64,000 nt of DNA, taken from sequence record MG748547; one strand, given 5' to 3'. The notes below the pieces were generated by a model. That model had not been told where the DNA came from. It did not search any database and saw nothing but the letters and a program-made list of their open reading frames with translations. Within the stretch, counting starts at the first letter, position 1; every line of letters begins with the position of its first letter. Made by a program: the position numbers and the translations under genes. Source of the DNA: Escherichia phage EP75. Below are positions 20,083-25,031 of the stretch, in pieces.

Positions 20083-20442
20083 CTAATCTATCCATATTTC
20101 AGGTTCGGGGATATCAACCATCTCCACCGTTTGATTCTTTAATTCGTGGAAACAGTCACCAAGGAATTGTAATTTACCATCAGTCAAGAACAAATGACAA
20201 CGACTCGCCGGATCAGAATGATTCACCAACAGACTAGGAGTGAAAGTCGGTGATTCGAGATCGTGATTCCATTGCCATATTGGGCCAGGCGTTTGCCCTG
20301 AAATGCGATAAGGATGAAGCATATTACATCCAGGACAATGAAAATATATGGAACCACCCATTGATAATAATTTTGGAGTCAATAATTTTGACATATCACG
20401 CCTCCACTTCTTCATCAGGATTGTATGGGCGTAATTCTCCAA
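20083..20442 (-). CDS. hypothetical protein with CxxC motif (119 aa)
   Basis: 'CPGC' motif plus downstream Cys/His. Confidence 0.45.
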   Translation of the reverse strand: MENYAHTILMKKWRRDMSKLLTPKLLSMGGSIYFHCPGCNMLHPYRISGQTPGPIWQWNHDLESPTFTPSLLVNHSDPASRCHLFLTDGKLQFLGDCFHELKNQTVEMVDIPEPEIWID

Positions 20443-20707
20443 TTAACTTAGGGAAGAGGGCAAACCCGAACAGATTAAAAGAACGCATGGTCCCAACCAT
20501 ACCAACATCATCCAATTCGGTAACGTCAGAAAGGGCACACAACGGTATCCACACGTCTTCTTGTCCTTCGTAATTTACGAAGGCAACTTCCTCTTTAATA
20601 AAACGAGGGCATAAGATATCGAACAACCAATAGAAGAAAGTCAGCAATGAGAGACTGCGGAAATATACAAACATGGTGAACCCCTTGCTTGTTTGGAGGG
20701 AATTCAC
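20396..20707 (-). CDS. small membrane protein (about 100 aa)
   Basis: Hydrophobic N-terminus; 3' end overlaps next gene. Confidence 0.4.
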   Translation of the reverse strand: MNSLQTSKGFTMFVYFRSLSLLTFFYWLFDILCPRFIKEEVAFVNYEGQEDVWIPLCALSDVTELDDVGMVGTMRSFNLFGFALFPKLIGELRPYNPDEEVEA

Positions 20708-20716
20708 CCTCCGGAT

Positions 20717-22042
20717 TTATAGGCCCAATGCCTTTTCAAGATCATCTAAATCTTCAGTATAAAGATCGATGTCTTGCTTATTATTTAATTCTTCTCGTTG
20801 AACTTCTAAATTCTTTATCTGGTTCAACAAACGTTCACGTGCGTCTAACGTAATTGATGATAAAGACATCTTGAATAAATCATCGAGATCGCCATCAAAA
20901 TCAGGATAGTCTGTCTGGAATAACGCTTTCAGTTCCGTGAGGCTCCGGCGCATATCTGTAACGACAGCCCACCCAATGAATATGGCACGATTGTTCAAAC
21001 GGTGTATTTTGTCGGTCAATTCCTTGATAAGATACTGACGTCTATCTTCATAGCGACTCAGGCGATAATTGAAAAATGGAAGCAACATGTCTTTCCAACC
21101 ATCATAACGGTGAATAACACCATCTTCATCCCAAGCTGTCCACACGGGCTTATTAGCTGAGTAGAGACGGAACATCTGTTCAACCTGTTCGTCATTCAAC
21201 TTAGACAATTCACCCCGCTTGAATACAACAGTGATATCCCAACCATCTTCGGTCGTATCGTTGGCGTACTCAGTGAGGACACCCGCCTTGTACAGGGGCA
21301 ACAGCACTTTGGTCTCATAGGTTTTAGAGAACCAACCAATAGGAACCTCGGTGATGTTCAAAGTGGTTGCATTAACGCGGGTGAACAAACCACGGCTGTA
21401 TGCTCTTCCTTCCTCAGTATAGCCCGTTTCTCCTTTGAAACCATTCCAGTACGGTTTTAAGTCTTTCGGGTCTTCGCCACGGAGAAGCGCTCTCAGGGCA
21501 CTGAGCACGGACTTAACGGAATGGCATGGGGTGTCGGTGGCATAACCGGAGCCGATACCATTGATACCATTCACGAGAAACATGGGCAGGATGGGTAAAA
21601 AGAATTTCGGCTCTAGTTTCTCTTCCCCAAGATAATTGTATTCCAATATCCCATCGTCCTCCTTTCGGAAGATTTTACGGATAACTTCAGACACTGCCAC
21701 TGAAATATAACGAGCGGAAGACGCTTCGCGCCCCATGATTGAACCAAACTGTCCGTCGCGGTCAAAGTATGGGATGTTATTCGTACCTGGGAACCCCTGA
21801 GCCATGTTCACAATAGTGCCGCTCATGTTCTCGCCACCAGATTTGTAGTTGGTGCGGGCGGCGGCGAACATGCCAAGGCGGTCAACGATCTCCTCCTTGT
21901 TGTACTCAAGAGCAGCAAAGAGGATCTTGCGCTGGCTGGGCTTGAGGCTGTCGATCAGTTGAGGGATTTGACGGATGCTGTTGACCACAGAGAACTCCTT
22001 GTGGTCACCATTTATGAAATCCGTCACGGTAATAGTCGTCAT
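20717..22042 (-). CDS. DNA topoisomerase II medium subunit (gp52-like, GyrA-like)
   Basis: 441 aa; 'KPSQRKIL' DNA-breakage segment characteristic of type II topoisomerase A subunit. Confidence 0.8.
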   Translation of the reverse strand: MTTITVTDFINGDHKEFSVVNSIRQIPQLIDSLKPSQRKILFAALEYNKEEIVDRLGMFAAARTNYKSGGENMSGTIVNMAQGFPGTNNIPYFDRDGQFGSIMGREASSARYISVAVSEVIRKIFRKEDDGILEYNYLGEEKLEPKFFLPILPMFLVNGINGIGSGYATDTPCHSVKSVLSALRALLRGEDPKDLKPYWNGFKGETGYTEEGRAYSRGLFTRVNATTLNITEVPIGWFSKTYETKVLLPLYKAGVLTEYANDTTEDGWDITVVFKRGELSKLNDEQVEQMFRLYSANKPVWTAWDEDGVIHRYDGWKDMLLPFFNYRLSRYEDRRQYLIKELTDKIHRLNNRAIFIGWAVVTDMRRSLTELKALFQTDYPDFDGDLDDLFKMSLSSITLDARERLLNQIKNLEVQREELNNKQDIDLYTEDLDDLEKALGL

Positions 22043-22488
22043 TTATCGTATCCCCCTAAATTAAATACGTCCACTTGGTAATCGACCAACCAAGATACCA
22101 GTTTAATCGCTTGTTCCGATTCATCTGATTCATCAAGAGTGTAATATGGTTTACCCGTCCCTTTAAGCGGGTCATACACCACCAATTTACCATCTCGAGT
22201 GTCCAACAATATCTGATGTAATATGCCAGGGGAAGTCAGGGAAGGGGCGACCAGGACATAAACATAATCGTGATAAATCGTTATATTTTGATTAGCCCCA
22301 CGCCCAGCTATAAATGGCACACCATTGAGATGCAGTGCGTCACCAATAGTCATCTCAAATGATTCGAATGAATCATGGAATTCGTCAATAACATTCTGTA
22401 CAGGGCGGTCGAGAATCATGGCCAAACACGCAGACATACAAGTGTTGCCTGTCGGTTGTTTTTGGTGTACTAATGGATTCAAAACCAT
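22039..22488 (-). CDS. papain-like cysteine peptidase, C39-like, putative
   Basis: 'QKQPTGNTCMSACLAMIL' (Q...C..A.LAM), 'HDYVYVLV' (His) and downstream 'DGKLVVYDP' (Asp) match the C39 catalytic arrangement; start set to ATG 22488 (GGAAGGGG ribosome-binding site). Confidence 0.5.
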   Translation of the reverse strand: MVLNPLVHQKQPTGNTCMSACLAMILDRPVQNVIDEFHDSFESFEMTIGDALHLNGVPFIAGRGANQNITIYHDYVYVLVAPSLTSPGILHQILLDTRDGKLVVYDPLKGTGKPYYTLDESDESEQAIKLVSWLVDYQVDVFNLGGYDK

Positions 22489-22489
22489 C

Positions 22490-24403
22490 TTATTCCCCTT
22501 CCGTTTCAAATAGGCAAACGTCGCTAAACCAGGTTTTGCGGTAGTCGGCGGCCTCATCACCGAAGCCATTCTTCAGTGACTGTTGATAGCCATCGTCCAG
22601 CGTGACCGTCGTAGTATACGCATCCAGGTTGTTTAGAATACGCTTGAAGTCTTCAGTGCTGTTACCGCCAAGACCTTTCAGATATTTATTCTTCGTGATC
22701 TTCTTGGCGTCAGGTGTCTTCAGGAACTCCTCATACTCGGTGTTGTTCATGAACTCATGCATCACCTTACCACACCACACGCGCATGTATGGAGTACGAA
22801 GGAGCTTCAGCCTACCCTGACGAACGTATTCAGGCCAGAACGTACAATACAGAGTTATTAACAACCCACGGATATGAATGCCGTCGTCATCCGCGTCTGT
22901 TGCCACGACGGTCTGTGGATAGCGACTGATATCAAGCGGCTGGCCTGGCACAGCACCGCCGTGAATGGTGCATAAATTCTTGAATTCTTCGTTCGCCATC
23001 ACCTTTGAGCGCGGGGCGTTCAGGCAGTTGATGAACTTACCACGAAGCGGGAACAAACCAATTTTCTTGGTATCACGAGCGTTCAGGATAGGGTTGGATG
23101 CGCTATCACCTTCTGTCAGTAGCAGCGAACACCCACTGCGGTCGCCTCTGGCGGTCGCCGGATAATACTTCTCAATCTCACGATAATCCCGTTTGCTGAT
23201 ATCCTTCTTCGCCTTTTCAAATTCGGCATCTTCTTGTTCATTGCGTAATGAAGCCAGTTCTTTACTCAGCCCTGCTGTCACGAACTCAAGCGCCTTGCGA
23301 ATCAGTTTATCGCTGGGCTTGTAGGACGTACCAAACTGGCTCACAGGAGTCGTCATGCGCTCCTTGGTCTGGCTGTCAAAGCGAGGGTTGTTGATGTCGG
23401 CGGCGATGAACAATGACATGTGGTTCTTGATCATCGCTGGCTTCAGTTCGGTCTTGAACTTCTTAACCAGCTGAGGGCGTATAGCCGCCACGATCTGGTC
23501 AGCAACATAATCAACGTGAGGTCCACCGATGTGCGTGGCGATTGAGTTCACGTATGATGCATGCATGAACGCACCAGATGAGGGAGTGATAGCAACAGAC
23601 CAATCATCCGTTTCATCAACAGCCGAGCCAGCGTAGAAGTAATCAACGAAATGACCAAATCGATCAATGCGGATTTGCTTGCCGTTGAGAACAACCTTCA
23701 GGCGCGGGTTGCATGCCGCCACTTCGAATGCACGACGGTAAATCATGAGCAGGTTGTTCTGGTCAAGCCCCTTAACACCCAGGCGCGCATAATCAGGGAT
23801 CCAGGCAATAGTGGTGCCGAACTCTTTCGGTGTATTGCCGATGACCGGATTGGACTTCTTGCTCATGTTGTCTTCAAACAGCTGAGTATAAGACTTCTTG
23901 CCGTCACTGGTAGCAACGCGGAACCACTTTGAGAACACGTTGACGAGCGAAGCCCCTTCACCGTTCTGGCCGCCGGACTTCTGGTTGTTGTACTCCTCGT
24001 CCTCATCGTTGAAGTTGCTGCCCGCATAGAGCGAGCCAAACAACATCTCAGGGAGCCACTCATTGGTGACGCCATGCTTGACCACAGGGATACCCCCGTT
24101 GTCAGAAACGATGATTTGACCGTTCATAGGGGAGACCGTGACGGTGATTTCCGTCAAGCCTTTACCCTCAGGGGTCTTGCTGTGGTCAACACAGTTGGTG
24201 ATGATTTCATCAAACTGTTTGATCAGCGCAGGGGAGTACTCAAAGTTGTCACGGAAGATGACTTTGTCTTTGGTTGGGTCATACACCCACACCGTCCCCA
24301 CAGACGAACGGATACTGCCCAGATGACGCTCTGGGCGAAGTAGGATATGCTCTATGTGAGTGAGCTTTTTGTATTTGCGTTCAATATCAATTTTGTTGGA
24401 CAT
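22490..24403 (-). CDS. DNA topoisomerase II large subunit (gp39+gp60 equivalent, fused)
   Basis: 637 aa; GHKL ATPase N-terminus and TOPRIM 'LLLTEGDSAS' in one uninterrupted ORF. Confidence 0.85.
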   Translation of the reverse strand: MSNKIDIERKYKKLTHIEHILLRPERHLGSIRSSVGTVWVYDPTKDKVIFRDNFEYSPALIKQFDEIITNCVDHSKTPEGKGLTEITVTVSPMNGQIIVSDNGGIPVVKHGVTNEWLPEMLFGSLYAGSNFNDEDEEYNNQKSGGQNGEGASLVNVFSKWFRVATSDGKKSYTQLFEDNMSKKSNPVIGNTPKEFGTTIAWIPDYARLGVKGLDQNNLLMIYRRAFEVAACNPRLKVVLNGKQIRIDRFGHFVDYFYAGSAVDETDDWSVAITPSSGAFMHASYVNSIATHIGGPHVDYVADQIVAAIRPQLVKKFKTELKPAMIKNHMSLFIAADINNPRFDSQTKERMTTPVSQFGTSYKPSDKLIRKALEFVTAGLSKELASLRNEQEDAEFEKAKKDISKRDYREIEKYYPATARGDRSGCSLLLTEGDSASNPILNARDTKKIGLFPLRGKFINCLNAPRSKVMANEEFKNLCTIHGGAVPGQPLDISRYPQTVVATDADDDGIHIRGLLITLYCTFWPEYVRQGRLKLLRTPYMRVWCGKVMHEFMNNTEYEEFLKTPDAKKITKNKYLKGLGGNSTEDFKRILNNLDAYTTTVTLDDGYQQSLKNGFGDEAADYRKTWFSDVCLFETEGE

Positions 24404-24452
24404 CGGCCTATCCCGTCAATGGTAAACACACAAGATTATGTATGGGGTTGGC

Positions 24453-25031
24453 TTATAGACCAAATTTAGTGCGCCATTTTTCCACTTTGTGTTCTATGGC
24501 ATGTTCCACTTTAACGATCGTGTTGATATGGTTTTGATTATATCCACACGCCAATTTGGCAGTATTGCGTATCAGATTTGAAACCAGGTCCACCATATTA
24601 TCTTCTGAACGTTGAGGTTGGTTCAGTAAACGAGTGATGCGGCCTTTGTAATGATTAACCATCGCAAGATATTTGTCTATAGTTTCAACACCACTGCAGA
24701 ACCAATAATCCTCCAACGTATGTTGGCTGAGATCAGTTGTGTGATTGGCCGTAGCCAAAGCAAACACCATGGAGTCAAAGATTTCTTCTTTGGTCATAGA
24801 CCCATGTTGTTGAACTTGTTGATAATCCACAACATATAATAGATCCAGAGCCGAGATGATAACGTCCGCCACTTCACCGTTCAGGGGTTCGGATGCAGCG
24901 ATTCCATAAAGCACATCTGATAGTTCACAAGACTCTTCCACGAGTTTGCAATATACAAACACAGGAGAACGATTAGGATCGCGCTGGCTGAGTTCATATG
25001 ATGTGTTGAAGATAGTTTTTAGAAAATTCAT
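24453..25031 (-). CDS. MazG-like nucleoside triphosphate pyrophosphohydrolase, putative
   Basis: 'KLVEESCELSDVLYG...EVADVIISALDLL' resembles MazG/HisE EExxE...D helix motifs. Confidence 0.45.
   Translation of the reverse strand: MNFLKTIFNTSYELSQRDPNRSPVFVYCKLVEESCELSDVLYGIAASEPLNGEVADVIISALDLLYVVDYQQVQQHGSMTKEEIFDSMVFALATANHTTDLSQHTLEDYWFCSGVETIDKYLAMVNHYKGRITRLLNQPQRSEDNMVDLVSNLIRNTAKLACGYNQNHINTIVKVEHAIEHKVEKWRTKFGL

Follow-up and report, generated by a model that had tools for sequence, protein, structure and literature searches.

In this study we examined a 64,000-nucleotide (nt) stretch of DNA from Escherichia phage EP75 (sequence record MG748547), the whole of which is referred to below as the window, with the focus on a short open reading frame (ORF) that lies on the minus strand between the genes for the two subunits of a topoisomerase II and very probably encodes a C39-like cysteine peptidase. 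The locus is composed of the following features.

22490..24403, minus strand: gene for the topoisomerase II large subunit (fused gp39+gp60 type), 637 amino acids (aa), the upstream neighbour, recognised by Pfam and by annotations
22495..22502, minus strand: Shine-Dalgarno-like element GGAAGGGG, within the final codons of the large subunit and 6 nt upstream of the peptidase ATG
22039..22488, minus strand: ORF for a putative stand-alone C39-like papain-fold cysteine peptidase, 149 aa, with its ATG at 22488 and its stop codon at 22039-22041, PHROG 4049
20717..22042, minus strand: gene for the topoisomerase II medium subunit (gp52 type), the downstream neighbour, recognised by Pfam (DNA_topoisoIV, E 6e-66) and by annotation

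The large subunit contains the Pfam domains HATPase_c, DNA_gyraseB, Toprim, and TOPRIM_C, and the ATG of the peptidase lies 1 nt past its TAA (22490-22492). The first-pass annotation of this DNA had placed the ORF directly after the fused large subunit with its ribosome-binding site (RBS) inside the 3' end of that gene, and both the coordinates and the position of GGAAGGGG were borne out; in the record of phage Marshall an RBS is annotated at the position equivalent to this element. At the other end, the stop codon of the peptidase and the start codon of the medium subunit share an ATGA overlap. This layout shows a peptidase gene that would be translated with both topoisomerase II genes through coupled starts and stops, and scans for promoters and terminators found nothing above chance level. 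The 3.75-kilobase (kb) region around the ORF is 100% identical to that of Salmonella phage aagejoakim (Kuttervirus, Ackermannviridae; MT074474.1), and about 275 related phage records match it.

The start codon of the ORF is annotated in three ways among these relatives. The GenBank coding sequence (CDS) of aagejoakim (aagejoakim_166) starts at 22437, 51 nt later (MSACLAM..., 132 aa), and Q11 and C17 are cut off from its product. SeF6a_161 starts 81 nt earlier (22569), which gives a protein of 176 aa and an 80-nt overlap with the topoisomerase gene. The 149-aa start is used in the allotria and Marshall records, and it is supported by this use and by homologues from unrelated phages, whose alignments begin at residue 5-10. 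Of the three readings, it is the sole one that keeps the conserved N-terminus without overlapping the topoisomerase gene. This is of value for annotation, as the deposited aagejoakim CDS is truncated and comes without the predicted catalytic Cys.

Judged by sequence comparison, the ORF and its conservation are beyond chance, as seen from its match to PHROG 4049 (E 1.7e-53, 181 bits; residues 5-143 cover positions 2-142 of the 145 in the profile), for which PHROGs lists no function, from its relatives in 444 clusters at E<=0.001 in an exhaustive HMMER scan of 1.84 billion representatives at 50% identity, and from its invariant residues. A word-indexed homologue search returned only 5 close relatives, and the exhaustive scan was needed for the rest. 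The proteins of the family are nearly all single-domain and 135-160 aa long. When column conservation was taken from the best 153 homologues, Q11 was conserved in 149 of 150 sequences, C17 likewise in 149 of 150, H91 in 154 of 154, and D106-P107 in 153 of 153, a result that was repeated in two further alignments. The other conserved columns are C21, A23, M24, H38, Y77, P82-S83-L84-N85, G110, and Y116. The codons of the residues that matter for the catalytic assignment, given here with their counterparts in the C39 transporter CvaB, lie as follows.

22456..22458, minus strand: Q11 codon (CAA), predicted oxyanion-hole Gln, 6 residues ahead of the nucleophile
22438..22440, minus strand: C17 codon (TGT), predicted catalytic nucleophile, where helix 17-26 begins; hhalign pairs it with CvaB C32
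22270..22272, minus strand: H73 codon (the His of 'HDYVYV'), non-catalytic, homologue column W/P/E/S
22216..22218, minus strand: H91 codon (CAT), predicted catalytic His on strand 90-96, aligned to CvaB H105
22168..22173, minus strand: D106-P107 codons, predicted third triad residue in a C39-type 'DP..G' motif, aligned to CvaB D121-P122

The spacing of these residues is Q11-x5-C17, with 74 residues from Cys to His and 15 from His to Asp. The strings QPTGNTCMSACLAMIL and HDYVYV, from which the first-pass annotation had recognised an ordered Gln/Cys/His/Asp arrangement, are indeed present in the ORF. Its Gln, its Cys, and its downstream Asp hold up as Q11, C17, and D106; the spacing that it gave as 'Q-x4-N-T-C' is in fact Q11-x5-C17, and the His of HDYVYV that it took as catalytic is H73, whose column is variable across homologues (W/P/E/S). 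The invariant His is H91, in the context GILHQILLD, and the conserved Asp stands in the context VYDP. The loss of a conserved catalytic Cys or His among homologues had been named as an observation that would speak against a peptidase; both residues are conserved, the His being H91 rather than H73.

An AlphaFold2 model of the protein, based on 81 homologues, was obtained with high confidence (predicted local distance difference test (pLDDT) 89, predicted template modelling score (pTM) 0.86), so that the papain-like fold anticipated for the structure prediction was indeed modelled. In the model C17 lies on helix 17-26, H91 on strand 90-96, and D106 after strand 103-105, and the predicted structure thus has the papain-fold layout of a Cys at the N-terminus of a helix and a His and an Asp associated with strands. 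When the model was compared with the Protein Data Bank (PDB) by Foldseek, the top eight matches were all PCAT1, with a probability of at least 0.99 and a template modelling (TM) score of about 0.5. The identity to solved C39 domains is approximately 13-16%, and the five best structural matches are true leader peptidases. In a viral structure library the matches were uncharacterised members of the family and one Bacillus phage protein named 'Peptidase C39 domain'.

Moreover, the family was aligned by hhalign with a C39 reference set consisting of CvaB and five relatives, that is, six ABC-transporter domains that were located in plasmid records and aligned. The comparison gave a probability of 95.8% (E 7e-9) over 98 columns, and it paired C17 with C32, H91 with H105, D106P107 with D121P122, and G110 with G125 of CvaB. 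A papain-like, C39-type catalytic architecture is well supported as a prediction from sequence and model, because of this residue pairing and because the Q-x5-C, Cys-His, and His-Asp spacings are like those of CvaB and LahT. The relation to the C39-like group as a whole seems to be that of a separate lineage. The phage family and the Cpe1-type toxin sequences were aligned with a probability of 94.4% over 32 columns, and the transporter C39 domains and Cpe1 with 93.2%; since these values and the 95.8% to the transporters are so alike, the phage family is best regarded as a branch of its own, the third in the C39-like group and about as far from one known branch as from the other, rather than as a member of either. 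Weak Pfam matches of other family members point in the same general direction, namely C39_2, DUF3335 (C39-like), and C58. The earlier proposal of a C39-like cysteine peptidase is thus upheld by the fold, the hhalign comparison, and the motifs, and by the ordered Gln/Cys/His/Asp residues with C39 spacing, which is one of the classical marks of this group; two other classical marks, a Pfam PF03412 score above threshold and a link to a peptide-exporting ABC transporter, were not found.

We propose, with a probability of roughly 60%, that the product of the ORF is a cytoplasmic cysteine endopeptidase with a single domain and a working active site, that it belongs to the C39-like branch of the papain superfamily (clan CA), and that it has an accessory role directed at the host or at a rival. 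If its chemistry follows that of its homologues, the nucleophile would be C17, where the first helix begins, H91 on a central beta-strand would be the general base, D106 would orient H91, and Q11 would contribute to the oxyanion hole. The AlphaFold2 model has no N-terminal hydrophobic segment, and residues 1-16 are coil. Those C39-like enzymes that have been characterised have a groove in which a short hydrophobic helix is bound, and their cleavage site is Gly-Gly, as in LahT (PMC6363468) and Cpe1 (PMC12136450); ComA is a further example of such cleavage. As to the physiological role, we tentatively suggest a site-specific cleavage of a host, rival, or defence protein at a small-residue site, a proposal that we regard as possible and no firmer than that. 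A cut of the Gly-Gly type is the likeliest such activity because the characterised C39-like relatives cut at Gly-Gly, and a host or competing-element substrate is the likeliest target because the cassette carries no partner gene. The substrate would then be encoded outside the cassette, either by the host, as a cellular factor or a defence protein, or by a competing element, and it might be cut at a small-residue (Gly-Gly-type) site while infection is in its early or middle phase, in the service of host takeover or counter-defence.

Several observations weigh against this proposal. The single protein compared with Pfam and NCBIfam gave nothing useful, and the search for a Peptidase_C39 hidden Markov model that had been suggested at first was divided in its outcome: the protein itself has no match to Pfam Peptidase_C39 (PF03412) at E<=1, whereas 31 of 105 family members have sub-threshold matches at E<=1, the best of them at 5.6e-5. 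Neither the single protein (phmmer) nor the family profile found a C39 structure in a search of PDB sequences. The matches of the profile were marginal, and the only papain-like one was Cpe1 (9l5u; E 0.31), with its Q/C and H..DP motifs aligned; a match to dystrophin was rejected as spurious. A TM score of only about 0.5 speaks for great divergence of the family, which may have a specificity other than Gly-Gly. No candidate substrate was found. In the literature searched there are no enzymatic or genetic data for any family member, and the only item found there on the family or on phage C39-like proteases was an annotation table in PMC9409062, with neither a functional nor a structural study. 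The remote C39 similarity has in fact been noticed before as an annotation only, in one GenBank record and in that one table (PMC9409062).

The distribution of the gene among close relatives is informative with regard to its role. Comparison with phage pertopsoe, which represents the ancestral state, delimits the inserted segment.

22034..22482, minus strand: accessory cassette, 449 nt in place of 9 ancestral nt (net +440 nt), from the alignment with phage pertopsoe

The ORF is present in 37 of 277 Ackermannviridae records (about 13%), and the topoisomerase genes abut in the others; accordingly, the flank matches span 511 nt where the gene is absent (approximately 240 of 277) and 951 nt where it is present. 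In pertopsoe, TAAGATGGTT starts the medium subunit, and in aagejoakim the same TAAGATGGTT starts the peptidase. The cassette takes over the old ATGGTT start and its RBS and provides the medium subunit with a new ATG in the ATGA overlap, the N-terminus of this subunit being MTTITVTDF with the cassette and MVAKSITVTDF in the ancestral form. In KE28 this slot is occupied by a GIY-YIG homing endonuclease, and in XF4 and SKML-39 by a 190-aa AP2-domain protein that is probably a homing endonuclease as well. Among Ackermannviridae, the place where the topoisomerase II genes meet is a hot spot for insertions, and most of these phages have nothing there. Every insert at this junction gives the medium subunit a different N-terminus, and in XF4 a 'homing endonuclease F-LimI' was seen just upstream of the large subunit.

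The ORF DNA is 100% identical among the Kutterviruses aagejoakim, allotria, and Marshall. The adjacent 150-nt windows are 93-95% identical, other flanking windows (20700-24450) are up to 99% identical, and the 5' half of the large subunit in allotria is only 74-79% identical. This pattern fits a mosaic recombination history with a recent lateral spread of the cassette, the latter being suggested because the ORF DNA is identical while its flanks diverge. Agtrevirus phages such as Ag3 have a 60-68% identical version in the same slot. With regard to synteny, which had been named as a check, the gene does occupy the same slot in Kuttervirus and Agtrevirus, but it is missing from most Ackermannviridae. 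These comparisons show a gene with the features of a dispensable, horizontally moving accessory cassette that would be no part of the topoisomerase. A role as a third topoisomerase subunit was considered and rejected, the gene being missing from 87% of the relatives.

Beyond Ackermannviridae, homologues with 25-45% identity occur in siphoviruses of Queuovirinae (Seuratvirus, Nonagvirus, and Vibrio phages), in the Vibrio cholerae podoviruses phiVC8 and VP5, in the Pseudomonas phages SM1 and PMBT14, and in Vequintavirinae and jumbo Erwinia phages. At the loci inspected, the gene is always part of an array in which small early or accessory genes, themselves uncharacterised, follow one another. 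When 185,579 species genomes were scanned with a pattern, nine loci came up, of which eight belong to Pseudomonas and one to a Methylophaga metagenome-assembled genome (MAG), and the one of these nine that was examined (L021, Pseudomonas canadensis) is a lambdoid prophage with the gene between replication gene P and later genes. An all-against-all comparison of the neighbours at 14 loci revealed no recurrent partner gene (substrate, immunity, or transporter), and the PADLOC defence-system models, including those for proteases, gave no match to the family. As single cases, longer homologues with an extra C-terminal domain were also seen (Phage_YunG-like in P0048, a zinc ribbon in P0061), which may be fusions or gene-calling artefacts.

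The position of the gene in Kuttervirus and Agtrevirus, with the phage's own GyrB-like gene directly on one side and its GyrA-like gene directly on the other, raises the question of whether the peptidase might cut host GyrB and ParE at LHAGG|KF in the ATPase domain, as Cpe1 does, while the phage topoisomerase II takes over. There is a precedent in Cpe1 itself, a C39-like protease that cuts GyrB and ParE at Gly-Gly (PMC12136450), and Cpe1 (9l5u) is the only papain-like PDB match of the family profile (E 0.31; hhalign 94.4%). Furthermore, the large subunit of the phage reads LYAGSNF (residues ~121-127), with no Gly-Gly, where GyrB reads LHAGGKF, and the phage topoisomerase is predicted to be insensitive to Cpe1-type toxins because of this replacement. 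However, Ackermannviridae without the gene have the same Gly-Ser (LFAGSNF). A co-adaptation of the phage topoisomerase to the protease was therefore rejected, since LxAGSNF is also found in phages that lack the gene. The family is no nearer to Cpe1 (94.4%, 32 columns) than to transporter C39 (95.8%), and the slot is a general hot spot that elsewhere holds GIY-YIG and AP2 proteins, so that the adjacency may be accidental. Moreover, in most carriers (Seuratvirus, Nonagvirus, Enhodamvirus, and Pseudomonas lambdoid prophages) the gene lies away from any topoisomerase gene, and these carriers probably depend on host gyrase. If PHROG 4049 were nevertheless Cpe1-like, it would be a third C39-like branch, carried by phages and cutting specific host proteins, and in particular a weapon against GyrB and ParE. 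We consider both this notion and the killing of host topoisomerases on which it rests to be improbable. A Gly-Gly cut would also suit a deconjugating isopeptidase, since C39-like enzymes cut after Gly-Gly and this is the C-terminal motif of ubiquitin-like proteins; such an enzyme would act in counter-defence by taking off the ubiquitin-like or cGAS-type C-terminal glycine conjugates that are attached by host systems such as Bil and type II CBASS (cyclic oligonucleotide-based antiphage signalling system) Cap2. Counter-defence genes typically occur as this gene does, in an accessory cassette placed with the early genes of many unrelated phages, and deubiquitinase (DUB) domains of phages have been put forward as a means against Bil (bioRxiv 10.1101/2023.09.04.556158). 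Nothing that we found specifically supports deconjugation, though, and DUB-like structures score below the C39 leader peptidases; as with the PADLOC models, which gave no match, no link of the family to a defence system was found in the literature. Deconjugation thus seems unlikely, although less so than the topoisomerase scenario.

About as unlikely is a non-proteolytic chemistry on the papain fold, whether that of an amidase, a deamidase, a transglutaminase, an acyl-transferase, or a gamma-glutamyl enzyme of the glutathione/phytochelatin type. One family member has a weak Pfam match to the OspI deamidase family, and the invariant H38, Y77, P82-S83-L84-N85, and Y116, which are absent from C39, suggest a distinct substrate pocket. 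On the other hand, true leader peptidases make up the five best structural matches and also supply the best profile match, and the C39 motifs Q-x5-C-x3-C-x-A-M and H-x-[IV]-[IV]...D-P-x-x-G are kept. We give very little credence to the view that the ORF is a dead C39-like domain of the HlyB type or a spurious ORF in a homing-endonuclease hot spot. The insertion slot is indeed used by selfish elements, but more than 150 diverse homologues are essentially invariant at all four catalytic positions, many phage lineages that are unrelated to one another have conserved the ORF, and the structure prediction is confident. An inactive C39-like domain was rejected in any case, as C17 is kept in 149 of 150.

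Two further genes of the window lie close to the topoisomerase locus. The gene upstream of the large subunit (24453-25031, minus strand) is annotated in aagejoakim as 'viral tegument-like protein' but in SeF6a as 'MazG-like pyrophosphatase', and it has no Pfam match at E<=0.001. Downstream of the topoisomerase genes, a 119-aa ORF (20083-20442, minus strand) matches DUF6527 (E 1.4e-13) and has Cys-rich CPGC and C..H motifs.

The active, C39-like endopeptidase that we propose would extend what is established for these enzymes. C39 peptidases are familiar as the domains that clip leaders in bacteriocin exporters and, from 2025 on, also as secreted gyrase-destroying toxins (PMC12136450). It now appears that the minimal C39 catalytic domain also moves about by itself, in a cassette represented by at least 444 clusters; these come from lytic as well as temperate phages, with hosts in Enterobacterales, Vibrio, and Pseudomonas, and this points to an unexplored class of phage proteases that may act against host or rival proteins. 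As the family is small and soluble and has a clear active site, this can be tested directly.

In comparison with the C39 transporters (PF03412; PCAT1, ComA, LahT, and CvaB), the order and the spacing of Gln/Cys/His/Asp are common to both groups, as are the motifs Q-x5-C-x3-C-x-A-M and H-x-V/I-V/I...D-P-x-x-G. The residues Q26/C32/H105/D121 of CvaB correspond to Q11/C17/H91/D106 of the phage protein with the same Q-x5-C, and in LahT the residues are Q21/C27/H101/D117, with 74 residues from Cys to His and 16 from His to Asp (PMC6363468). This stands in contrast to the remainder of the protein and its genetic setting: the phage protein is 149 aa long, stands alone, and is predicted to be cytoplasmic, without transmembrane or ATPase domains, there are no bacteriocin or transporter genes nearby, and the family has invariant residues of its own (H38, Y77, PSLN 82-85, and Y116) that are absent from C39. 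In addition, unlike the C39 transporters, the family is encoded only by phages and prophages. HlyB-type C39-like domains are inactive and lack the catalytic Cys, whereas the phage family keeps C17 in 149 of 150 sequences. Among other clan CA enzymes, Josephin, the bacterial 'clippase', and the UFM1-specific proteases are structurally less similar to the phage protein than the C39 leader peptidases are.

The toxins Cpe1, EvpQ, and TsaP, which are delivered by a secretion system of type VI (T6SS) or by contact-dependent inhibition (CDI) (9l5u), offer the other point of reference, since they too are built on a C39-like minimal domain and have a cytoplasmic cellular target rather than an exported leader. 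Cpe1 is a papain-fold toxin of the C39-like type that cuts GyrB and ParE at LHAGG|KF, a Gly-Gly site (PMC12136450), and its Q/C and H..DP motifs align with those of the phage family. The phage gene differs from the Cpe1 type in that it has no PAAR, VgrG, Rhs, or CdiA delivery domain and no adjacent immunity gene.

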